Origin: Armatimonadota bacterium
GTDB lineage: Bacteria; Sysuimicrobiota; Sysuimicrobiia; Sysuimicrobiales; Kaftiobacteriaceae
Length of the DNA stretch: 64,000 bases
Reading direction: 5' to 3'
Assembly: GCA_037440005.1 (NCBI GenBank)
Contig: JBBIUY010000005.1
Location: forward strand, 34,179 to 98,178
Shown here: positions 17,346 through 62,832 of the stretch, piece after piece
Layout: each line of letters opens with the position of its first letter
Numbering within the stretch: the first letter of the stretch is position 1
Translations under genes and position numbers: made by a program
The notes under the pieces: model-generated
What the model saw: the letters and a program-made list of their open reading frames with translations, nothing else
Told to the model about the DNA's origin: nothing
Database searches by the model: none

Positions 17346-17503
17346 CCGGGTGCTCCTGTTCGTCGCGGCGCGCTATGGCTCCCTGCCGGGCCCGGCTGAG
17401 GCCCTTCCGGCGGTGAGCATATCCGTCGGACACCCGCAGCGGCTGTGACGGAGGGCACAGAGAGAAGAGGGAAAAAGGAAAAGGGAAAAGGGGAAAGGGG
17501 GGG

Positions 17504-18025: not shown

Positions 18026-18147
18026 CTTCCCGCAGGACCCTCCTGCGGCTCTCACACGCTCGGGTCGCCCGGGGTGCCCGCAAGCCCCGGGCCAGGTCCT
18101 CGTTCAGCCCTTGACATACGAACAAAGGTTCGTATATTATCCCACTC

Positions 18148-19140
18148 GTGGGGCACGTCCAGGGAGACCTCTTCCCCGACCAGCCGCCGCCTCCGGCCTC
18201 CGTGCGGCTGTTCCGCGCCATTGGCCTGCGGGTTACCCCTCAGGTGGAGTGGGTGGAAGTGCGTGTCCGCTCCGTCCTCAACCGCGTGCAGGGGATGCCG
18301 TTTCGGTGGTCCATCAACCCGTACCGGGGGTGCCAGCATCAGTGTCCCTTCTGCTACGCCCGCCGCACCCACTGGTTTTTGGACCAGGACGGCGTCGCCG
18401 ACTGGGGACGGCGGGTCTTCGTGAAGGTCAACGCCCCCCAGGTCCTGCGCCGGGAACTGGCCGATCCCCGCTGGGCGCGGGAGGAGGTCCACCTGGGCAC
18501 CGCCACCGACCCCTACCAGCCCGCCGAGGGCATCTACCGGCTGACCCGTCAGATCCTCCAGACGCTGCACGAGTATCGCACCCCGGCTGCGGTCGTCACC
18601 CGGTCCACGATGGTGGTGCGGGACAGGGACGTCCTGCAGGCGATGGCCCGCGGCGCGGGCGCGACGGTCTGCGTCAGCGTCGCCACCATGGACGAGGGTC
18701 TGGCGCGCCAGATCGAGCCCGACGTGCCCCCGCCGCGCGCCCGCCTGCACGCGCTGCGGGTCCTGGCGGACGCCGGGATCCCCACCGGGGTGCTGCTGGC
18801 GCCGGTCCTGCCGGGCCTCACCGACAGCCCCGGGCAGCTGGCGGCGGTGGTGGAGGCCGCCCGCGACCACGGCGCCCGGTGGCTGTGGACCAACACCCTG
18901 CACCTGGGCGACGTCACCCGGCAGGCGTTCTTTCAGTTTCTGCAGCGCTGGCATCCCCACCTGGTTCCCGAGTACGAGCGCCTGTACCGCGGGAAGTACG
19001 CCCCACGCGCGTACCAGCGCCGGGTCCAGGAGGTGGTGGCGGCGCTGCGGGCCCGCTGCGGCTTCGGCCGTCGGGCCGACGGGCCGGCCCATCTCCCGGA
19101 CGGCGAGGCGCCGACAGCGCTCCCCCTGCGTCTGCTCTGA
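18148..19140 (+). CDS. Radical SAM domain protein (COG1533 DNA-repair photolyase / SplB-like)
   Basis: Cx3Cx2C cluster 'GCQHQCPFCYA'. 330 aa. Adjacent to the DinB-like gene. Confidence 0.7.
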   Translation: MGHVQGDLFPDQPPPPASVRLFRAIGLRVTPQVEWVEVRVRSVLNRVQGMPFRWSINPYRGCQHQCPFCYARRTHWFLDQDGVADWGRRVFVKVNAPQVLRRELADPRWAREEVHLGTATDPYQPAEGIYRLTRQILQTLHEYRTPAAVVTRSTMVVRDRDVLQAMARGAGATVCVSVATMDEGLARQIEPDVPPPRARLHALRVLADAGIPTGVLLAPVLPGLTDSPGQLAAVVEAARDHGARWLWTNTLHLGDVTRQAFFQFLQRWHPHLVPEYERLYRGKYAPRAYQRRVQEVVAALRARCGFGRRADGPAHLPDGEAPTALPLRLL

Positions 19141-26632: not shown

Positions 26633-27103
26633 ATGGCCCGCCTGACGGTGGACGAGCTGGCGGCGCTGTTCGAGGGCCGCACGCGCTTTGTCGAGCGGCT
26701 GGCCGCCCTGGACGACCCCCTGGACAGGGCGGTGGAGGTGCTGCGGTCTCTGCCCGAAGAGGAGGTCGTCGAGGCCCTCAACGCTCACCCCCGCATCGGC
26801 GAGCGGCCGACCTCCCCCGCCGCGGCCGCCGAGCAGGGGACCGAGGACGACCCCGCGGTGCTGGCCGAGCTGGCGGCCCTCAATGCCGCCTACGAGCGCG
26901 CTTTCGGATTTCGCTTCGTGGTCTTCGTCAACCGGCGGTCCCGCTCGCAGATCATCCCGATCCTGCGCCAGCGCCTGCAGCGCACCCGCGCCGAAGAGCT
27001 GGCCACCGCCATCGAGGAGCTGGTGGCCATCGCCCGGGAGCGGCACGCGCAGAGGGAAAAGGGAAAAGGGAAGAAGGAAAAAGTGGAAGGCAAAACCGCA
27101 TAA
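26633..27103 (+). CDS. uraD: OHCU decarboxylase (2-oxo-4-hydroxy-4-carboxy-5-ureidoimidazoline decarboxylase)
   Basis: 'LNAHPRIGE' catalytic His motif. 'FVVFVNRRS'. C-terminal Lys/Gly/Glu-rich tail encoded by a polypurine tract. Ends in TAA. Confidence 0.75.
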   Translation: MARLTVDELAALFEGRTRFVERLAALDDPLDRAVEVLRSLPEEEVVEALNAHPRIGERPTSPAAAAEQGTEDDPAVLAELAALNAAYERAFGFRFVVFVNRRSRSQIIPILRQRLQRTRAEELATAIEELVAIARERHAQREKGKGKKEKVEGKTA

Positions 27104-27107
27104 AGGA

Positions 27108-27152: not shown

Positions 27153-27212
27153 CCGCCCTTTTTCCCTTTCCTTTTTTCCTTTTCCCTTTTCCTTTTTCCC
27201 TTTTCCCTCCCT

Positions 27213-55615: not shown

Positions 55616-56152
55616 GTGCGCTACGCGGCGGTGGGAGCGCTGGCTCTGGCGGCGGTCTTGACCGGGTACGCCATCGTCTACCTGGCCACGGCTCCACCGC
55701 AGAGGGCGGGGATGTCGGCGACATCCGACCTGGCGCCCTCGGTGCGGGGGCTGTACCGGGGGGCGGACGTCCTGTTCGTCCACACGGAAGCCTCCGACCG
55801 GTCCGTGGCGGAGATGCTCACGGCCATGACCGGCCGCCGGGTGCTGGTGGTCCCCTCCCTGGCCCGGGTCCCCGGCGGCCTGCTGGCCGACGTCTACGTG
55901 TTCACCAACGGCGTGTCGGGGACCGGACCGTTCGGCTTTCAGCCCGACGTGTTCAGTTCGGTCCCCGGGGAGCCGGGCTACACCCCGCTGCGGTCGGTGG
56001 TCCTCGTCACCTGGACAGGCAGCGCCACGCCCCGGGTGCTGGGCTCGGTGGAGGAGATCCGCGCCGCCGCCGACAGGGGAGAGCTCTCCCTGAGGCGGAC
56101 CGCCGTGGTGGTCAACATGCCCATCCTGGCGTGGCCGGGCGGACACCGCTAG
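55616..56152 (+). CDS. Exported protein with a single copy of the uncharacterised domain duplicated in 48674..49744
   Basis: GTG 55616 after GGGGAGGG. N-terminal TM/signal. 'YVFTNGVSGTGPFGFQPDVFSSVPGEPGYTPLRSVVLVTWTGSATPRVL'. Confidence 0.55.
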   Translation: MRYAAVGALALAAVLTGYAIVYLATAPPQRAGMSATSDLAPSVRGLYRGADVLFVHTEASDRSVAEMLTAMTGRRVLVVPSLARVPGGLLADVYVFTNGVSGTGPFGFQPDVFSSVPGEPGYTPLRSVVLVTWTGSATPRVLGSVEEIRAAADRGELSLRRTAVVVNMPILAWPGGHR

Positions 56153-56250
56153 AGTCCCGCCCGGTCCCGCCTCCTTGCCGCCGGGGCGCCGCGTCTGGTA
56201 AGGTGGACACCTGAGTACGGCGTGCGGAGCGCATCCCGGAGGAGACACCC

Positions 56251-56661
56251 ATGGCGGTCACCGAACCGATGGCGGCGCCGTTTGTGCTGCCGGATTTCTC
56301 CGACACGGTGGTCACGGCCAAGTTCTTCCGCGCCCTGGGCGACCCCACGCGCCTGCGCATCCTCGAAGCGGTCATGGAGCGCGAGAAGAACGTCTCCCAG
56401 CTGGTGGAGCTGACCGGGGCCCCCCAGGGGCGGGTCTCCAGCCACCTGGCCTGCCTGCGCTGGTGCGGCTACGTGACCACGCGCCGGGAGGGCCGCCGCG
56501 TCTACTACCGGGTGGCCGACCCCCGGGTCCGCAGGCTGGTGACTCTGGCCTCCCAGCTGGTAGCCGACAACATGCAGCGGATCCGCCAGTGCACCATCGT
56601 CGACCGCCGCAGAGGGCGAGCGGTCCGGCGGACACCCCCCCGCTCCCGCAGGACCTCCTGA
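56251..56661 (+). CDS. ArsR/SmtB-family metalloregulator
   Basis: 'FRALGDPTRLRILEAV', 'VSQLVELTGAPQGRVSSHLACLRWCGYV'. 136 aa. Confidence 0.75.
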   Translation: MAVTEPMAAPFVLPDFSDTVVTAKFFRALGDPTRLRILEAVMEREKNVSQLVELTGAPQGRVSSHLACLRWCGYVTTRREGRRVYYRVADPRVRRLVTLASQLVADNMQRIRQCTIVDRRRGRAVRRTPPRSRRTS

Positions 56662-56878
56662 CCCCCGGCATCTGATCCGGCCGATCCTTTCTGCCCGCGC
56701 GGCGTCCACCCGCGCGGTCTGTGTTTCCACCTGTCCGGACCATGCCCTGAACACCGCTGCGCCCGCCCCGATGGCGGGCCACGCCGACCCCGCGCCCCGG
56801 CGCCGACTCCGGGGAATATGCGCGGGAGCACCCCCGGTACGACCTGACGGCAGACCGATCGAGGGAGGATGGGCGCCT

Positions 56879-57682
56879 ATGCGGGATCCGTGGGAGCTGT
56901 GGGAGGAGCGCCGGGAAGGGCGGCGGCGGCGCACCGAGGTCATGGCCCGACGCCGCCAGATCCTGACCACGTTCGAGCGGGAGCGGGGCAGCCGGGCCAT
57001 CACCCTGATCCACCGGCGGGAGCCCTGGGAGGACGAGGCGCCCTACATTACCATCGAGGACTCGGAGTTCGTCCTCACGCAGATCAAGCACACGCCGCCC
57101 CAGGTGCCCATCGACATCATCGTCCACACCCCCGGAGGGCTGGCCCTGGCGGCGGAGATGATCGCCATGGCCCTGCGGCACCATCCGGCCCGGGTCACCG
57201 CCATCGTCCCCTTCTACGCCATGTCGGGGGGAACCCTCATCGCCCTGGCGGCCGACGAGATCCTCATGGAGCGGTTCACCACCCTGGGTCCCGTCGACCC
57301 GCAGGTGATGGGGTACCCGGCGGGCGCCCTGCTCCGGGTGCTGGACCACAAACCCCTGGCCGCGGTCAGCGACGAGATGATCGTGCAGGCCGAGGTGGCC
57401 CGCCTGGCGATCCAGAACGTCCGGGGCTTCGTCCGGTGGTTGCTGGCGGACCGCCTCCCCGCCGAGGCGGCCGCCCGGCTGGCCGACTTCCTGACCGGAG
57501 GCTACCTGGCCCACGACACCCCCATCACCCTGGAGGCGGTGGCGTCGTTCGGCCTGGCGGTCCGTGAGGGAGTCCCGGCGGCCATCTACGACCTGTTCTC
57601 CACCTGCGAGTTCGGGGTGTGCAAGCGGCCCTGCCTGGCCGCCTACGACCACGCGGGCGTCGGCAGCTCCGCCGTGGCCTGA
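56879..57682 (+). CDS. SDH-family (ClpP/crotonase-fold, S49-like) serine peptidase
   Basis: 'IDIIVHTPGGLALAAEMIAMAL', 'FYAMSGGTLIALAADEILME'. ATG 56879 after GAGGGAGGATGGG. Confidence 0.55.
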   Translation: MRDPWELWEERREGRRRRTEVMARRRQILTTFERERGSRAITLIHRREPWEDEAPYITIEDSEFVLTQIKHTPPQVPIDIIVHTPGGLALAAEMIAMALRHHPARVTAIVPFYAMSGGTLIALAADEILMERFTTLGPVDPQVMGYPAGALLRVLDHKPLAAVSDEMIVQAEVARLAIQNVRGFVRWLLADRLPAEAAARLADFLTGGYLAHDTPITLEAVASFGLAVREGVPAAIYDLFSTCEFGVCKRPCLAAYDHAGVGSSAVA

Positions 57683-57721
57683 GGGGCCGGCCTTTTCCCG
57701 GCGTTATGAGGAGGTGGTGAG

Positions 57722-58741
57722 ATGCACTGGGTGTTGTGGGCGGTGGCGTTTGCCGCCGTCCACCTGCCGATCGTCACCCTGCTGGCCGACCGGATCCTGG
57801 ACGTGCCCGCCCCGCGGGTGATCCGGTCCCTGTGGGTCGCCGGCGCGGCGGCGCTGGCCCTGGTCGTCGGCGTCGCCCGGGGACGGGACCCCCTGCTGCT
57901 GGAGGTGCTGCTGTGGGGCGCCGTCGGCGGGCTGGTGGCCACCGCCGCCCTGGACGTGGTGAGGCTGTTCGGCCACCACGTCCTCCGCGCCTTTCCCGTC
58001 GACATGCCCCAGGTGTTCGGCATGCTGGCCCTGGGACTGGGCCCGCGCCTGCAGGAGCAGACCGTCGCCGCTTTGGTGGGCCACCTGGCCGAGGTCGACC
58101 CGCCGACCCGGCGGCAGATGATGCACCACAGGCTGGTGGCGCTGGCCAGGCTGCCGGAACCGGTGCGGGTGGCCGTCGTCCGGGGGATGCGCGCGGGCCT
58201 GGCGGCGCTGCCGGACGACCGACGCGTCGAGGTGGTCCAGACCCAGATGAGCGTGCTGGCCGACCTTCCGGCGGAGGTCCGGCGGCCGGTGATGCGGGCG
58301 ATGGACCTGGCCGCCGCGGACGACACCGCGCCCGTGTACGCCCAGCCCCGGGGGTTGCCCCGCATTCCCATGGACCTCGCCCGCCGGCTGCTCGCCGTCG
58401 CCCTTCCCCGGGCGATGGCCGCGGCCGGGGTGTCCCGGGCCCGGGTCCTGCTGGCGGGGTACGGGTGGCACGTCCTGAACGGCGTGGGGTTTGGCGTCGC
58501 CTACACGCTGCTGTTCGGGGCCGGCGCCTGGTGGCTGGCGCTGGCGTGGGGTCTATTCATCTGGGCCGGCATGATGGTGACCATGCCCGTGATGATGCCG
58601 ACCATCGCCTTCCCCATGCCGAGGTTTCTGGCCGTTCCCTTCGTCGCCCACGTGGTCATGGCTGTGCCCATCGGGTACTACGCCCAGAAGATCACCGCCG
58701 CGGCCACGGCGGCGAGCCTGCTGGGGGCGTGGCTGAGGTAG
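57722..58741 (+). CDS. Hypothetical polytopic membrane protein
   Basis: 339 aa. Hydrophobic N- and C-terminal regions flanking a helical Arg-rich middle. Confidence 0.45.
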   Translation: MHWVLWAVAFAAVHLPIVTLLADRILDVPAPRVIRSLWVAGAAALALVVGVARGRDPLLLEVLLWGAVGGLVATAALDVVRLFGHHVLRAFPVDMPQVFGMLALGLGPRLQEQTVAALVGHLAEVDPPTRRQMMHHRLVALARLPEPVRVAVVRGMRAGLAALPDDRRVEVVQTQMSVLADLPAEVRRPVMRAMDLAAADDTAPVYAQPRGLPRIPMDLARRLLAVALPRAMAAAGVSRARVLLAGYGWHVLNGVGFGVAYTLLFGAGAWWLALAWGLFIWAGMMVTMPVMMPTIAFPMPRFLAVPFVAHVVMAVPIGYYAQKITAAATAASLLGAWLR

Positions 58742-58802
58742 GCGGCGCGCGCGGCCTCGCCGGCCGGTTTGATGTGCTAAAATGATTTATCCAGAATTCC
58801 GT

Positions 58803-59696
58803 ATGCGGGCACGGGGGGGTGGGCGGTCGGTGGGCCCGGCGGACCGTCCGGCACGGCCGGCGGACGACGAGAGTGTGGCGGCGCGCAAGCGCCGGTTTGA
58901 GGAGATGGTGGCCGCCCACCTCGACTCGCTGTACCGGACCGCCTTCACCCTCGCCCGCCGGCGGGAGGACGCCGAGGACCTGGTGCAGGACGCCCTGACC
59001 CGGGCGTGGCGGAGCCTGCATGCCTTCCGGGAAGGGGAATCCCCCCGCAGCTGGTTGACGGCGATCCTCGTCAACGTCTTCCGCGACCGCTACCGCCGGC
59101 TCAAGCTGTCCCCGCCCGTCGTCCCCCTGGAGGCCGACGACGCCTACGTATACGCGGGGGCCGTGGACGCCCAGTCCCTGGGCGGGGCCAATCCCGAGGA
59201 CGCGGTGGGGGCCGAGGAGCTGTCCGACCCGGTGCTGCAGGCCATCCGCGACCTGCCGGTGATCTTCCGGGAGCCCCTCCTGCTGGTGGATCTGGAGGGG
59301 TTCAGCTACCACGAGGCGGCGGAGATTCTGGGCGTGCTCACGGGGACGGTGATGAGCCGGCTGCATCGGGCCCGCCGGCGGCTGGCCCGGGCCCTGGGCG
59401 GGTCGTCGCCCGCGTCCCGGGAGCACCGGACGCCGCGCCGCCGGCGCCCGGGGCCCCACGCCCGCCGGGTCATCACCTGCGGGGAGGCCTGCCGGTACCT
59501 GCACGCGTACGTGGACGGCGTCCTTGACGCCTCCGACAGCCGGCGGGTGGACGAGCACCTGGCCACCTGTCGGGGGTGCTGCGACCGGCTGGAGTTCGTA
59601 CGGCGACAGAGAGCTCTGCTGGTGGCGCACCACCTGGGCACGACGGTGCCCCGGGCGCTGCTGTCCCGGCTGCAGGCGTTGATCGTGGCGTTCTGA
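58803..59696 (+). CDS. ECF sigma factor fused to a C-terminal zf-HC2 (ZAS) anti-sigma domain
   Basis: Sigma region 2 'DLVQDALTRAWRSLHAFREGESPRSWLTAILVNVFRD'. Region 4 'SYHEAAEILGVLTGTVMSRLHRARRRL'. Then 'CGEACRYLHAYVDGVLD...VDEHLATCRGCCDRLEF' (H-x3-C-x2-C). The start is ambiguous (58782/58803/58830). Confidence 0.6.
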   Translation: MRARGGGRSVGPADRPARPADDESVAARKRRFEEMVAAHLDSLYRTAFTLARRREDAEDLVQDALTRAWRSLHAFREGESPRSWLTAILVNVFRDRYRRLKLSPPVVPLEADDAYVYAGAVDAQSLGGANPEDAVGAEELSDPVLQAIRDLPVIFREPLLLVDLEGFSYHEAAEILGVLTGTVMSRLHRARRRLARALGGSSPASREHRTPRRRRPGPHARRVITCGEACRYLHAYVDGVLDASDSRRVDEHLATCRGCCDRLEFVRRQRALLVAHHLGTTVPRALLSRLQALIVAF

Positions 59697-59814
59697 CGCC
59701 GCGGGCTCGCCGCTGGGCCTGTTCCCTCCGACCCGGCCGCGGCCGGGGGCGGCTCGCCGGACGGGAATGAACGGAGGGGACCGGCCCGTAGGTCCGTAAC
59801 GGAGGCCTTCCCCC

Positions 59815-60471
59815 GTGGACGAGCGCGTGCCCGTGGCCCTGGTGTACGCCAGCCGGCTGCTGCGGGAGGGGATGCGGGACCTGCTGGAGCGGCAGCCGGA
59901 CGTGCGGGTGGTGGGGGTCTTCAGCGACCTCCGGGCGGTCCTGGCGCGGCCGGCGGCGGACGAGCACGTCCTCCTGTGCGACCTGGCCACGGTTCAGAAG
60001 GAGCCGGAGCTGACGCGCCGGCTCCGGGAGGCGCTCCCCCTCGCCCGGGTGGTCTTTCTCAACGTTCCCGAAGACGAGGACGCCGTGGTGGAGTGCGTCG
60101 GCGCGGGGGCCTTCGGGTGCATCCTCCAGGACGCGTCCCTGGAGGAGGTCCTGGAGGGCATCCGGGAGGTCTGGCACGGCACCCCGGCCATGTCCCCCCG
60201 CTGCCTGACCTTCCTGTTCCGCTACGTGGCCAAAACCCGGTCGGGAGCCGCCCCGCCGTCGGACGCGGGCCTCACCCGCCGGGAGCGCCAGATCCTGGAG
60301 CTGATCGCCGAGGGGCTGACCAACAAGGAGATCGCCCAGCGCCTGTGCCTGCAGCCCCAGACGGTGAAGAACTACGTCCACCAGGTCCTGCAGAAGCTGG
60401 AGGTGCGCAGCCGGCTGGAGGCCATCCGACGGATGCGGGCATCCGGCCGCCTGTCCTCCCCCACCTCGTAG
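59815..60471 (+). CDS. LuxR/NarL-family response regulator (atypical receiver)
   Basis: GTG after ACGGAGG. C-terminal '[43 protein letters not shown]'. Confidence 0.7.
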
Positions 60472-60663
60472 CGCGGCCGAAGACACAGAGTCCGCTCCGG
60501 TGGTGCGGATCGAGGTACCGGTACTCTTTTCGGTACCCGGGTGTCTGGTCAGCGGCGTGCCCGCCCCGTAGGGTTAGGTTCCGGGCGCCCGGGCCGTGCC
60601 GCGTCACGGACCGGTGCTCTCATCGAGCGGCGCGCGTACGTCGGTCCCACCCGAGCGGCGAGG

Positions 60664-61035
60664 ATGGACAAGGCGAAGGTCCTGCTGGCCCACGTGCCCC
60701 GGATCCTCGGCGACGTCCTCACCCACATCCTGGAGGGCCAGCCCGACATCGCCGTGGTGGGCGAGGTGGACACCCTCGACGACCTGCCCCGGGCCGTGGC
60801 GCGCCTGCGACCCGCGGCCGTGATCCTCACCCCGCTGCCCCGGACCGGGGGCCGGTGGAGTCTCCGGATCCTGTGGGATCGCTGCCCCGAGCTCCTGGTG
60901 GTCGAGATCGACGCCGACCACGACCGGGTAGTGGTGCGGTCCGCCGACGGCCGGTCGCGGCATCTGGAACTGTCGGCAGCCGGCATCGTCCAGGCCGTCA
61001 GGAGCGCAGCGGGCCAGCCGCGGCCGGACCGGTAA
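60664..61035 (+). CDS. Stand-alone receiver-like (pseudo-receiver) domain protein
   Basis: 123 aa. 'KVLLAHVPRILGDVLTHILEGQPDIAVVGEVDTLDDLPRAVARLRPAAVIL'. Confidence 0.4.
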   Translation: MDKAKVLLAHVPRILGDVLTHILEGQPDIAVVGEVDTLDDLPRAVARLRPAAVILTPLPRTGGRWSLRILWDRCPELLVVEIDADHDRVVVRSADGRSRHLELSAAGIVQAVRSAAGQPRPDR

Positions 61036-61275
61036 GGGCCCGCCGGCTGCCCTCCGTACCGGTACTCCCGTACCTCCGGCGGACGCCGTCGTACCGATTC
61101 GTCGATCAGGACCATCTTGAGTACCGCCCGTATCTGGGCGGACCCCGCCCCTGTCCCTCATCGTGGTGGTAACCCTACGGTCGTCTCACGGGAGAGGCGC
61201 AGGAGGTGGGGGAGGGCGGAGCCGACGCCTTCGCAGGGCGCGCTCGATCACGTTGGACGGAGAGGTGATGGCGAC

Positions 61276-62832
61276 ATGGAGTCACCGCAGACGCGATATC
61301 GCAAGACGGGGTGGGGGCTGATCGCGGCCGCCGCCGTGCTGGCGGTGGGGTTGCTCGCGTACCCCTACCTGGGCCGCGCGCCGGTGTCCACCGGCGTGGC
61401 CGAGGCCCAGGCACCGGCCAGCGTGGCCCAGGAGCAGGCGCCGGCCGCTCCGGAGCCGACAGCGCCGGCCGCTCCGGAGCCGACAGCGCCGGCCGCTCCG
61501 GAGCCGACAGCGCCGGCCGCCCCGACGGCCCCGCAGGAACTGGGCATCAGCAAGAGCATCGCTCCCGACCTGACGGTGCGGTCTGCCCAGATCGTCCGGT
61601 TCAACCTCTTTGACAGGGAGGAAGAACTGGTGGAGTTCGTGTTCAGCGGCGAGATCCAGAGCGTGGAGGCCGCCGACGGCTTCATGCTCCTGGGTCCGCG
61701 CGCGACCGACGAGGCCATCTCCACGAGCGCCGCGCTGGTGGAGACGAACCGCCGGGCGGTCCTGGTGGGCTTCAAGGCGGGGACCAACGTCCCGGCCTAT
61801 ACTCTGGCCGCGGTCCGCAGCGGCGCCGTGAGCAACCTGGCGGGCAAGGTCAACCTGCAGGCGGTCATCCCCCTGGGAGCCCGGGGCGCGCTGCTCAAGC
61901 AGGGGCCCACGGCCGCACCCGCCCTGCTGTGGGTGTCCGTGGACCGCACCAAGGAGTGGATCACCTACGTGTTCGACGAGTCCCTGGACCAGACCCTGTC
62001 CCCCGATCCCCGGAAGTTCGGCTACTACACGCGCAACGGACGCCTGCACCTGGGGCAGAGCCTGGTCAGCCTGTACGACCGGGCGGTGACCATTCAGTTT
62101 GACCGCTCGGGCGGCGACACGGTGGAGGATGCGGTGCGGTACTTCGTCCTGGACGACGCGGTGAAGGACCTGCAGGGAGCCGGCAACACGCCCCGGGCGG
62201 TGGGAAACACGACAACCAAACCGGACCTGGTGAGCGTGGCCCGGATCGCCGACACCATGTTTGACTACACCTTCGACGAGGCGGTGACGGAGATCAAGCC
62301 GCAGGAGTTCACCGTGTGGACGATCCAGGGCGCCCGGTACCAGGGGTCCAGCTACGCCCGTCCCGACGCCCGGACCGTGCGGGTGGTGTTCCCCCAGCTG
62401 CGGTACGTGGGCGAGCAGGTGGTCCTGGCGGCGGTCGGGCCCGAGGCGGCCAAGGCGGCGGAGAGCATCACCTCGCCCAACACCGTGGGCGCCATGCGGC
62501 TGTCGCCGGCCGGTCGCGCCAACGGGCGGGTGGCGGCTCCCGAGCTCACCTCCATCGACGTGGACGACGACACGGGCATGGTGTCCTACAACTTCGACCG
62601 CGCCCTGAGCCGGCAGCTGACGCTGGACAAGATCGACCCCAAGAAGTTCACCATCGTCAGCAGCTCGGGCGACATCCAGCAGGGGCTGGCCGTGGCCGCC
62701 ATCGGCACCAACTGGGTGAGGATCCTCTTCAACAAGGACGAGGTCAAAGACGCCGTGGGGGCGGCCGTGGCGTCTGGAGCCGTCACCGACGACGAGGGCA
62801 ACGGCAACTTCCTCGGCTCGGTGCTGCGCTAG
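61276..62832 (+). CDS. Membrane-anchored cell-surface protein with Pro/Ala/Glu-rich linker and four tandem beta-rich (Ig-like) repeats
   Basis: N-terminal TM. Linker of 3.5 copies of 'APAAPEPT'. Four ~100-aa repeats each with an 'F/Y.FD..L' core. 518 aa. Confidence 0.6.
   Translation: MESPQTRYRKTGWGLIAAAAVLAVGLLAYPYLGRAPVSTGVAEAQAPASVAQEQAPAAPEPTAPAAPEPTAPAAPEPTAPAAPTAPQELGISKSIAPDLTVRSAQIVRFNLFDREEELVEFVFSGEIQSVEAADGFMLLGPRATDEAISTSAALVETNRRAVLVGFKAGTNVPAYTLAAVRSGAVSNLAGKVNLQAVIPLGARGALLKQGPTAAPALLWVSVDRTKEWITYVFDESLDQTLSPDPRKFGYYTRNGRLHLGQSLVSLYDRAVTIQFDRSGGDTVEDAVRYFVLDDAVKDLQGAGNTPRAVGNTTTKPDLVSVARIADTMFDYTFDEAVTEIKPQEFTVWTIQGARYQGSSYARPDARTVRVVFPQLRYVGEQVVLAAVGPEAAKAAESITSPNTVGAMRLSPAGRANGRVAAPELTSIDVDDDTGMVSYNFDRALSRQLTLDKIDPKKFTIVSSSGDIQQGLAVAAIGTNWVRILFNKDEVKDAVGAAVASGAVTDDEGNGNFLGSVLR
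61438..61521 (+). repeat. Perfect 24-bp tandem repeat (gcgccggccgctccggagccgaca) x3 plus a partial copy
   Basis: Seen directly. Encodes (APAAPEPT)n inside the surface protein gene. Confidence 0.85.

Follow-up and report, generated by a model that had tools for sequence, protein, structure and literature searches.

A SigH-like ECF sigma factor and an RsrA-like zinc domain encoded in one reading frame of an Armatimonadota genome

Sigma/anti-sigma pairs are normally made up of two proteins. In the 64,000-nucleotide stretch of Armatimonadota DNA analyzed here (the window), one open frame appears to encode both partners, which raises three questions: whether the fusion is genuine, whether its C-terminal half inhibits the sigma factor to which it is joined, and what might then release that sigma factor.

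A sigma factor and a zinc domain in one chain

The gene, here called sigma-ZAS, and its parts are as follows.

58830..59696, + strand: sigma-ZAS gene with GTG 58830 as probable start, 288 aa (ATG 58782 is the first codon of the mechanical ORF)
58905..59105, + strand: sigma-70 region 2 (PF04542, E 1.9e-16)
59232..59384, + strand: sigma-70 region 4 (PF08281, E 3.8e-14)
59385..59477, + strand: basic, proline-rich linker (family alignment; pLDDT below 50 at residues 193-211)
59478..59693, + strand: complete class I anti-sigma domain of the ZAS (CHCC) type (PF13490; RsrA 5FRF profile match; AF2 helices)

The ORF listing gives a single frame on the + strand from 58782 to 59696, with 304 codons and a TGA stop at 59694-59696. 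Pfam places Sigma70_r2 at residues 42-108 and Sigma70_r4_2 at residues 151-201 of the 304-aa ORF and finds no match in it to sigma region 1 or region 3. The original prediction of one uninterrupted ORF carrying sigma-70 regions 2 and 4 and then a ZAS motif is thus borne out. The GC3 is 0.56 in the first 48 nt (58782-58829) versus 0.94 in the remainder, and this head of the ORF is probably noncoding; GTG 58830, the start used in a public gene call (P0001, 100% identical) and in orthologues, is the probable start of the gene. Residue numbers below refer to the 288-aa product unless stated otherwise.

With regions 2 and 4 and 87.2 bits on the ECF superfamily model TIGR02937 (cut-off, 42.9), the protein is an ECF (group IV) sigma-70 factor. 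The closest solved structure to its sigma half is Mycobacterium tuberculosis SigH (E 1.9e-27), a result with which Foldseek agrees, and the sigma half scores 118.2 bits on the SigH model TIGR02947, under the cut-off of 251.55. This half has no cysteine, the first in the protein being residue 217. It is not a PhyR-type mimic: a receiver domain is absent, and PhyR models reach 29 bits versus 52 to 60 for true sigma models.

The predicted C-terminal motif CGEAC...HLATCRGCC (Cys233, Cys237, His259, Cys263, Cys266, and Cys267 in 304-aa numbering) proved real, as zf-HC2 (PF13490) matches residues 233-266 of the 304-aa ORF at E 4.8e-8 and 33.4 bits, above the gathering score of 22.2. Candidate zinc ligands, following the ZAS pattern C/H-x(23-26)-H-x3-C-x2-C, are Cys217, His243, Cys247, and Cys250, invariant in 28 of 28 family sequences and aligned with RsrA Cys11, His37, Cys41, and Cys44; the 26-residue spacing from Cys217 to His243 is identical to that from Cys11 to His37. 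A profile of the C-terminal half has RsrA (5FRF) as its best match, at E 1.2e-5 across RsrA residues 11-78, and the top NCBIfam match is likewise antisig_RsrA (TIGR03988; 31.3 bits, E 1.7e-7, model positions 2-70 of 77). This score is short of the 62.5 bits set as the TIGR03988 equivalog threshold, which the stand-alone relative P0131 passes with 65.7 bits. The AF2 model places helices at 217-229, 234-250, 253-267, and 275-287 (pLDDT, 77 to 93), a predicted four-helix class I anti-sigma fold of helices 1 to 3 plus helix 4. Mean column identity in the family alignment is 71% for the C-terminal module versus 64% for the whole protein, which we read as a sign of selection on a putative inhibitor domain.

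The nearest relatives of this module are mostly stand-alone ZAS proteins of 70 to 130 aa. The earlier statement that the usual place of a ZAS motif is a membrane anti-sigma factor is only half right; the domain described here is closest to soluble RsrA. The absence of a transmembrane segment was correctly foreseen: the highest 19-residue Kyte-Doolittle mean is 1.18, compared with values of >1.6 in about six segments of the neighboring membrane protein, and the chain ends 38 residues past the zinc-finger motif.

Features tied to redox sensing are mixed. A first zinc ligand that is Cys, not His, underlies disulfide-stress sensing by RsrA (PMC4960319), and sigma-ZAS has the CHCC set of redox-sensing ZAS proteins, with the first ligand, Cys217, invariant in 28 of 28 sequences. 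In RsrA, redox sensitivity is tuned by two acidic residues preceding Cys41 and by Leu-Glu following Cys44; as applied here, this becomes two acidic residues in front of the first Cys of the motif, with Leu and a charged residue behind the second (PMC3177212). These flanks are not kept in the family consensus HLxxCRRCCDR, in which the first Cys is preceded by variable, nonacidic residues and the second is followed by Cys-Asp; the aligned flanks, x-T-C-R-x-C-C-D, are nearer those of redox-insensitive RsiW than those of RsrA (PMC3177212). Beyond the canonical ligands, the family alignment contains invariant Cys221 and Cys251 and a nearly invariant His-His pair, and the CC pair is also found in stand-alone RsrA-like relatives.

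In the AF2 model of the whole protein the domains are confident (pLDDT, 79), and the pTM of 0.37 leaves their relative docking too uncertain to judge. A Foldseek search with this model returned only sigma chains, with a weak RMSD trend: 10 to 13 Å for sigma factors bound to anti-sigma factors versus ~22 Å for RNAP-bound SigH.

The known systems most like sigma-ZAS are SigR-RsrA of Streptomyces coelicolor and SigH-RshA of M. tuberculosis (ECF12), which share with it a SigH-like sigma half, an RsrA-like C-terminal half, and a soluble CHCC-zinc anti-sigma domain with the same Cys-to-His spacing. They are also alike in a probably autoregulated sigma gene with a second, housekeeping-type promoter, and the candidate promoter GGAATA-N16-GGTA (see below) resembles the ECF12 target GGAAT-N18-GTT. 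ECF12 systems, however, are two cotranscribed genes with the soluble ZAS gene downstream, whereas here there is one polypeptide, followed by a LuxR-like gene. Both halves fall below the NCBIfam equivalog cut-offs, the HCC redox-tuning residues differ from those of RsrA, two extra cysteines are invariant, the host belongs to the Armatimonadota rather than the Actinobacteria, and sigma-ZAS shares its operon with genes for a protease and a membrane protein. The closest ProS proteins are likewise from MAGs that carry the label Armatimonadota. A link to ECF270 is possible: Tables 1 and 2 of a 2022 review (PMC8999054) give some members regulatory extensions and the others soluble ZAS partners, which may be the same idea of a soluble ZAS joined to an ECF factor; the review, as far as these tables go, reports no experimental work on the group. 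Sigma-ZAS is a variant of known sigma/anti-sigma systems, not a new kind, and it would extend SigR/RsrA-like regulation beyond Actinobacteria.

Conservation and origin of the fusion

An assembly or frameshift error joining an adjacent sigH/rshA-like pair could produce such an ORF, and adjacent split pairs are indeed the rule among the nearest genome relatives: in a genome scan dominated by ordinary SigH-like genes, the frame of these relatives closes after region 4 and a separate RshA-like gene comes next. The same frame is nevertheless kept, with the linker, five cysteines, and one histidine all retained, in 28 database clusters at 40 to 70% identity drawn from JGI, ENA, NCBI, and Logan assemblies. 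An identical sigma-ZAS protein was found on two independent contigs, and past its 48-nt head the ORF has a GC3 of 0.94 throughout. By these 28 in-frame clusters, the two contigs, and the uniform GC3, the artifact is effectively refuted.

The original prediction named two things to look for in relatives, a split pair and a stop codon separating region 4 from the ZAS portion. Relatives at 59 to 70% identity have no such stop, and in more distant genome relatives the sigma gene and a downstream RshA-like gene are separate. Because distant relatives are split and close relatives are fused without a stop, we infer from these comparisons that sigma-ZAS is a natural gene fusion that arose in evolution and not an assembly error. 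A metagenome scan with the C-terminal profile recovered eight loci only.

Operon context and a candidate promoter motif

Genes and motifs around sigma-ZAS are listed here.

56813..56839, + strand: ECF-type promoter motif GGAATATGCGCGGGAGCACCCCCGGTA, 40 nt 5' of the SDH-protease start; candidate sigma-dependent (autoregulatory) promoter
56879..57682, + strand: gene for a ClpP-like SDH-type serine protease, 267 aa (PF01972, E 5.9e-70); first gene of the conserved cluster
57722..58741, + strand: gene for a 339-aa membrane protein, directly 5' of the sigma-ZAS gene in 9/9 loci
58752..58766, + strand: weak terminator-like hairpin after the membrane-protein gene (consensus scan only: five GC pairs and a T-rich tail)
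59764..59790, + strand: second ECF-type motif GGAATGAACGGAGGGGACCGGCCCGTA, 25 nt 5' of the LuxR-like gene
59815..60471, + strand: gene for a LuxR/GerE-type regulator with a degenerate receiver domain (GerE E 8.2e-20; Response_reg 26.3 bits, under the 30.2 cut-off)

The protease gene lies upstream of sigma-ZAS in seven of nine orthologous loci. The 339-aa protein has about six hydrophobic segments and a confident AF2 model (pLDDT, 95.5; pTM, 0.89), with no Pfam or NCBIfam match and no PDB fold match at E ≤ 0.001. Downstream, the next gene encodes the LuxR/GerE regulator (present at this position in four of nine loci), in agreement with the earlier claim that no separate anti-sigma gene follows; the regulator is probably a target gene, not an anti-sigma factor. 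Genes for thiol and metal functions recur nearby (MerR, P1B ATPase, ArsR, CopZ, HMA, MerA-like, AhpC/TSA, and DsbD_2), a context that suits the switch favored below. Rfam gave no match in the window.

Side-by-side reading of upstream regions led to recognition of the motif GGAATA-N16-GGTA, which occurs in front of the operon, ~2 kb 5' of the sigma-ZAS gene, and a second time 3' of that gene; the latter arrangement, motif plus LuxR-like gene, recurs in locus L082. Exact matches to GGAAT-N18-SGTA number 2 in the window (0.06 expected), and motif matches number 15 in the 85.6 kb of orthologous loci (0.375 expected). The density per 100 kb is 21.8 in family loci versus 1.1 in 80 control loci. All 19 of 19 motif instances are on the coding strand, 24 to 118 nt 5' of a start codon, and in 7/7 loci having the SDH-protease gene the motif lies 40 to 116 nt upstream of it. 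In orthologous locus L100, GGAAT-N18-GTT stands directly 5' of the sigma gene. A one-mismatch search of the window gave seven matches against 5.2 expected, not above chance, and a loose ECF scan (GGAA[TC]-N16-19-[CG]GT[TC]) yielded scattered matches with no pattern. On the basis of colocalization, GGAATA-N16-GGTA is a candidate target promoter of the sigma-ZAS protein, which comes with a testable motif and a candidate regulon.

Candidate routes of release and basal expression

Sequence comparison leads us to favor, with moderate confidence, a single-chain cytoplasmic sigma/anti-sigma switch in which a SigH/SigR-like ECF factor, joined by a linker of ~25 residues to an RsrA-like zinc domain, would be released reversibly through thiols or metals. 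In reduced cells, the C-terminal domain would hold zinc via Cys217, His243, Cys247, and Cys250 and wrap its own regions 2 and 4, blocking binding to the RNA polymerase core. The zinc would be expelled by oxidation of the thiols or by thiophilic metals such as Cu, Hg, and Cd, a disulfide would then link helix I (Cys217 or Cys221) to helix II/III (Cys247, Cys250, or Cys251), and the domain would collapse as in RsrA, freeing the tethered sigma factor for GGAATA-N16-GGTA promoters. Its targets would be its own operon (positive feedback), the LuxR-type regulator, several membrane proteins, and, in some relatives, another sigma-70-family factor; re-reduction would reset the switch.

A natural soluble single-chain version would fix the stoichiometry at 1:1 and make inhibition independent of concentration, altering the expected dose-response and reset kinetics. 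Synthetic biology could use it as a small transcription switch, encoded by one gene and responsive to thiols or metals. For structural studies of ZAS-sigma complexes it offers a ready single-chain construct, of a sort so far engineered by hand. One such engineered protein, an AlgU-linker-MucA(cyto) fusion with the topology seen here, assembles into the native complex (PMC13251409), which speaks for the favored switch.

Some observations tell against the thiol switch. The RsrA redox-tuning flanks are absent, and the TIGR03988 and TIGR02947 cut-offs are missed. The linker (family consensus R-K/R-R-P-G-P-E-Q-A-x-A-K-R-R) is conserved in sequence, which speaks against a passive tether and counts against the thiol switch because a passive tether needs no sequence conservation. 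A protease gene in the same operon fits a proteolytic route and is likewise counted against it.

Such a proteolytic route, which we consider unlikely, would leave zinc a structural role as in RsiW and have the linker cut, or the C-terminal domain degraded, by the SDH protease (perhaps under the control of the 339-aa membrane protein) or by Clp/Lon. Consistent with it are a linker that is conserved yet predicted to be disordered, HCC flanks like those of RsiW (PMC3177212), and an operon that holds the SDH protease in 7/9 loci and the membrane protein in 9/9; proteolysis has also been proposed for fused IutY, ECF48, ECF52, and ECF53 (PMC8999054). The protease is, however, missing from two of nine loci and from a more distant fused lineage (L088 and L103), the CHCC ligands are all invariant, the redox-critical first Cys included, and a protease under sigma control would more simply be a regulon member. 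The precedents themselves differ in topology. Actinobacterial ECF52 (SCO4117), ECF48, and ECF53 resemble sigma-ZAS in that a ZAS-like zf-HC2 domain is likewise attached behind the sigma domains and no separate anti-sigma gene exists. In these proteins, however, which are thought to be released by proteolysis, a transmembrane helix or helices and extracytoplasmic parts of up to ~400 residues follow (PMC8999054, PMC5826349), whereas sigma-ZAS is fully cytoplasmic. IutY of Pseudomonas putida (ECF243; a FecI-FecR fusion) is another natural single chain of sigma and anti-sigma; unlike sigma-ZAS it spans the membrane, is of the FecR rather than the ZAS type, and depends on regulated intramembrane proteolysis (Prc and RseP) for its activation.

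A more elaborate proposal, to our minds a doubtful one, makes the three-gene operon a new signaling module in which, on top of the thiol/metal switch, the membrane protein would sense an envelope or metal signal and control the SDH protease, which would cut the linker. If true, removal of a tethered cytoplasmic anti-sigma domain by a dedicated partner protease would be a soluble counterpart of regulated intramembrane proteolysis.

The C-terminal domain might instead be a positive or modulatory extension (compare the CorE Cys-rich domain and ECF41 SnoaL), since in several ECF groups deletion of a C-terminal extension inactivates the sigma factor (PMC6851896, PMC7826278). Here, however, the domain is a complete, RsrA-homologous four-helix class I anti-sigma domain whose stand-alone relatives are anti-sigma factors encoded beside SigH-like sigma genes, and we regard an activating role as very improbable. 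CorE and CorE2 of Myxococcus xanthus (ECF44/ECF238) share with sigma-ZAS a one-component cytoplasmic layout, a Cys-rich C terminus, and a metal-related neighborhood. CorE differs in carrying a CxC in the stretch separating region 2 from region 4 and in its short Cys-rich tail, which is no anti-sigma domain and without which the protein is inactive (PMC6851896); in sigma-ZAS, the sigma part lacks cysteine and the tail is a full anti-sigma domain.

Direct metal sensing in the manner of CorE is the remaining alternative: binding of Cu, Hg, Cd, or excess Zn by Cys217, Cys221, Cys247, Cys250, Cys251, His243, His267, and His268 would switch the domain without oxidation. The two extra invariant cysteines and the His-His pair would suit this, as would the recurrence of metal genes (MerR, P1B ATPase, and ArsR in the window itself; CopZ, HMA, and MerA-like in related loci) and a distant homologue of the membrane neighbor in a CsoR/ATPase/MerA island. 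We nevertheless think it improbable: the CC pair is shared with stand-alone RsrA-like proteins, none of the genes that have the promoter motif upstream is a metal gene, and neighborhood evidence is weak in compact genomes.

Under the favored thiol/metal switch, basal transcription of the sigma-ZAS gene would come from a housekeeping sigma factor at the AT-rich island before it, which contains two elements.

58775..58783, + strand: extended -10-like element TGcTAAAAT, inside the AT-rich island 58761-58809
58789..58804, no strand assigned: imperfect palindrome ATCCAGAATTCCGTAT (82% complementary), just 3' of the -10-like hexamer; possible operator

The GC content is 33% at positions 58776-58805, compared with 73.6% for the window. 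Across the 64 kb, only about six such islands, this one included, reach ≤40% GC for 30 nt. The original prediction that the island may carry the autoregulated promoter is not supported. The island is AT rich and promoter-like and, because TGcTAAAAT is conserved in orthologues, is probably the housekeeping-sigma promoter of the gene; that it is autoregulated is unlikely, its -10 element being of the housekeeping type and the ECF-type motif lying elsewhere. No -35 element was found for it, and for want of a -35 a strict sigma-70 scan of 56000-61300 gave zero sites. In different loci the -10 hexamer is followed by short palindromes (GAATTC, TTCGAA, GGATATCC, and TCTAGA), which were rejected as an operator, being too short and too different. 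A TAnnnT hexamer lies ~45 nt 5' of the start codon in seven of the nine orthologous loci.

Domain architecture and conservation of the fusion

As originally predicted, a single uninterrupted frame carries sigma regions 2 and 4 followed by a zf-HC2 domain; Pfam detected neither sigma region 1 nor region 3.

Open frame of sigma-ZAS and its Pfam domains (residues of the 304-aa ORF)
ATG 58782 to TGA 59694-59696, + strand, sigma-ZAS open frame of 304 codons
Residues 42-108, + strand, Sigma70_r2 (E 1.9e-16)
Residues 151-201, + strand, Sigma70_r4_2 (E 3.8e-14)
Residues 233-266, + strand, zf-HC2 (E 4.8e-8; the motif passes the HMM at 33.4 bits versus a gathering score of 22.2)

The protein also passes the NCBIfam ECF superfamily model (87.2 bits versus 42.9). 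Its start required correction. In the public gene call and in every orthologue, the start is GTG 58830 or close to it, yielding 288 aa, and GC3 over the initial 48 nt of the ORF is 0.56 versus 0.94 in the remainder; these 48 nt are probably untranslated. Residue numbers such as Cys217 refer to the 288-aa protein. The predicted lack of a transmembrane segment was confirmed: no hydrophobic segment was found in the chain (highest 19-residue hydropathy mean, 1.18), and the 339-aa membrane protein encoded next door exceeds 1.6 in about six segments by the same measure. Nor is there a separate anti-sigma gene downstream, where the next gene (59815-60471) encodes a LuxR/GerE regulator. The receiver domain of this regulator scores 26.3 bits versus a Pfam cutoff of 30.2, its N-terminal acidic pair is missing, and no neighboring gene encodes a histidine kinase.

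Among 5.8 billion proteins searched, 26 cluster representatives (272 to 319 aa) had 59 to 70% identity to sigma-ZAS, and two further fused relatives, P0029 and P0030, had 40 to 42%. All 28, drawn from JGI, ENA, NCBI, and Logan assemblies, share the uninterrupted architecture, which effectively excludes an assembly frameshift as the origin of the fusion. The C-terminal residues without variation in the family include Cys217, Cys221, His243, Cys247, Cys250, and Cys251. If anything, the C-terminal module is more conserved than the whole protein (mean column identity, 71% versus 64%), and the linker is also kept (consensus R-K/R-R-P-G-P-E-Q-A-x-A-K-R-R). On these comparisons, sigma-ZAS is a genuine fusion maintained by selection.

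A second fused lineage, at ∼40% identity, occurs in two other contigs (L088, 3526-4320; L103, 3737-4603). It has additional linker cysteines (DYCxxTGQCR) and a different genomic setting: downstream, both contigs encode a DUF302 protein and a membrane protein related to the 339-aa protein's C-terminal half, and L088 carries zf_CopZ upstream of the sigma gene.

Origin of the two halves and comparison with known systems

Among proteins of solved structure, Mycobacterium tuberculosis SigH is closest in sequence to the N-terminal half (E 1.9e-27), and a fold search agreed. A profile covering the last 91 residues matched Streptomyces coelicolor RsrA best (5FRF; E 1.2e-5), with RsiW second; the alignment spans RsrA residues 11 to 78 and pairs RsrA Cys11 with Cys217. 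The best NCBIfam model for this module, antisig_RsrA, scored 31.3 bits, under its cutoff of 62.5. Scanned in full with HMMER, 1.84 billion representatives yielded 2,473 matches to the C-terminal profile. The best 150 are mostly stand-alone proteins of 70 to 130 aa, with few other sigma fusions (P0126, P0130, and P0227 and the fragments P0140 and P0240). Also among the best matches are P0125, P0128, and P0132 (300 to 485 aa), which have two to four tandem zf-HC2/RsrA-like modules and no sigma domain.

The closest relatives in the genome collection, most of them actinobacterial, are SigH-like genes that stop after region 4, and several have a separate RshA-like gene directly downstream in another frame (tblastn). 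A split pair is thus the usual arrangement, and sigma-ZAS is an evolutionary gene fusion. The original prediction took a stop codon in relatives as a sign of an artifact. Such stops were found, but only in distant relatives, those at 40 to 70% identity being uninterrupted, and the pattern instead argues for a fusion history. The source organism itself lies outside the actinobacteria; its ProS shares 94% identity with that of a metagenome-assembled genome labeled Armatimonadota.

Fused sigma/anti-sigma proteins are also known in ECF48, ECF52, ECF53, and IutY, but these span the membrane and are thought to be driven by proteolysis (PMC8999054, PMC5826349). SigR-RsrA and SigH-RshA are soluble ZAS switches made of two proteins, whereas sigma-ZAS is one chain; CorE is a cysteine-rich one-component ECF without the anti-sigma domain present here (PMC6851896). 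Sigma-ZAS thus joins a soluble RsrA-type switch to a single-chain format. Some ECF270 members, for which a review lists extensions beside soluble ZAS partners, may embody the same idea.

The C-terminal domain appears to be a CHCC-type ZAS with the ligand spacing of RsrA. In RsrA, Cys as the first ligand permits a trigger disulfide and oxidative sigma release (PMC4960319); in the sigma-ZAS family, this Cys is invariant. The mechanism we consider most likely, by analogy, is zinc-dependent inhibition in cis: the zinc-bound C-terminal domain would inhibit its own sigma part, thiol oxidation or thiophilic metals would relieve the inhibition, and the sigma part, freed yet tethered, would drive GGAATA-N16-GGTA promoters, including that of its own operon. 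An AlgU-linker-MucA fusion engineered with like topology gives the native complex (PMC13251409), and the cis geometry is therefore feasible; the AF2 model of sigma-ZAS (pTM 0.37) is too low in confidence to place the docking of the domains. Three features weigh against a simple copy of RsrA: the residues on either side of the motif that tune redox response (PMC3177212) differ, the linker is conserved, and a protease gene lies in the same operon. Release by proteolysis is therefore a strong competing explanation. Another is direct metal sensing through two extra cysteines and a His-His pair.

Genomic neighborhood and candidate promoters

We compared the window with eight orthologous contigs, nine loci in all. 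The gene for the membrane protein (339 aa, once 304 aa) is directly upstream of sigma-ZAS in all nine. It is preceded in seven by a gene for a ClpP-like SDH-type serine protease (PF01972; E 5.9e-70), and a LuxR-type regulator follows sigma-ZAS in four. Thiol- and metal-related genes lie near sigma-ZAS, both in the window (MerR, P1B ATPase, and ArsR) and elsewhere (CopZ, HMA, MerA-like reductase, AhpC/TSA, and DsbD_2).

This unannotated membrane partner and the promoter motif are the most useful by-products of the analysis. The membrane protein (57722-58741) matches no family in Pfam or NCBIfam; AF2 models it with very high confidence (pLDDT 95.5; pTM 0.89), and Foldseek found no PDB analogue at E≤0.001. 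A more distant homologue, P0312, is encoded in a CsoR/P1B-ATPase/MerA-like island without a sigma gene. Within the loop of the 339-aa protein lies a helical LPxxxRxxxM repeat module (window 58049-58378) that recurs in several neighboring unannotated proteins, some of whose genes have the GGAATA-N16-GGTA motif upstream.

Recurrences of the LPxxxRxxxM module in orthologous contigs (proteins of 464-495 aa, 145 aa, and 268 aa)
L097, 4606-6000
L097, 6132-6569
L101, 3612-4934
L101, 6131-6937

The motif, GGAATA(A)-N16-GGTA, was recognized by reading the upstream regions of neighboring genes side by side and was searched as GGAAT-N18-SGTA. The 64-kb window contains exactly two matches versus 0.06 expected.

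ECF-type motifs in the window
56813-56839, 40 nt upstream of the protease gene
59764-59790, 25 nt upstream of the LuxR-like gene

The eight orthologous loci contain 15 matches in 85.6 kb versus 0.375 expected. All 19 instances, N17 variants included, are on the coding strand, 24 to 118 nt ahead of a start codon; the motif stands ahead of the protease gene wherever that gene occurs (7/7 loci) and of several conserved unannotated genes. Conservation extends beyond the search pattern (A6, 14/17; A7, 13/17; G24, 16/17), and family loci average 21.8 matches per 100 kb versus 1.1 in 80 control loci. The motif was not found in the L088/L103 lineage. In four Streptomyces/Kitasatospora controls (L031, L032, L043, and L046), matches share a relative position ∼3.8 to 4.1 kb downstream of the start of a sigR-like gene and may be a genuine SigR-dependent promoter. 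In two loci, the motif precedes a sigma-70-family gene (regions 1.2, 2, and 4; 295 to 318 aa; L082, 11947-12834, − strand; L099, 4204-5160, − strand), which suggests a sigma cascade.

GGAATA-N16-GGTA is similar to the SigR/SigH consensus GGAAT-N18-GTT, an exact copy of which lies directly upstream of the sigma gene in the orthologous locus L100. Following the reasoning customary in ECF genomics, its colocalization with the gene marks this motif as the candidate target promoter of sigma-ZAS. If so, an autoregulated promoter would head the protease-membrane protein-sigma operon, and the AT-rich island would be a second, basal promoter. The AT-rich patch noted in the original prediction is real, gctaaaatgatttatccagaattccgtatg (58776-58805) having 33% GC versus 73.6% in the window, and belongs to one of about six comparable low-GC islands in the 64 kb; it is unlikely to carry the autoregulated promoter, as was proposed, since the ECF-type motif heads the operon instead.

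Inside the island is a −10-like element:
58775-58783, TGcTAAAAT

In seven of the nine loci, a TAnnnT hexamer lies ∼45 nt ahead of the start codon (in orthologues TATAAT, TAGATT [twice], TAGAGT, TAAACT, and TAAAGT), and we read these as housekeeping-type −10 elements; a promoter scan found no −35 element for TGcTAAAAT. Immediately 3′ of this hexamer is an imperfect 16-bp palindrome, ATCCAGAATTCCGTAT (58789-58804), possibly an operator or a chance occurrence; orthologues have differing short palindromes at the matching position. The sequence also shows canonical housekeeping promoters to be in use in this organism: a perfect TTGACA-N17-TATATT surrounds a LexA (Cheo) box, CGAACAAAGGTTCG (window 18108-18150), ahead of a radical-SAM, SplB-like ORF (18115-19140). 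The few low-GC islands of the window also include purine-rich GGGAAAAG-type tracts (17459-17490, 27053-27107, and 27154-27209) with a pyrimidine-rich complement ∼50 nt away.
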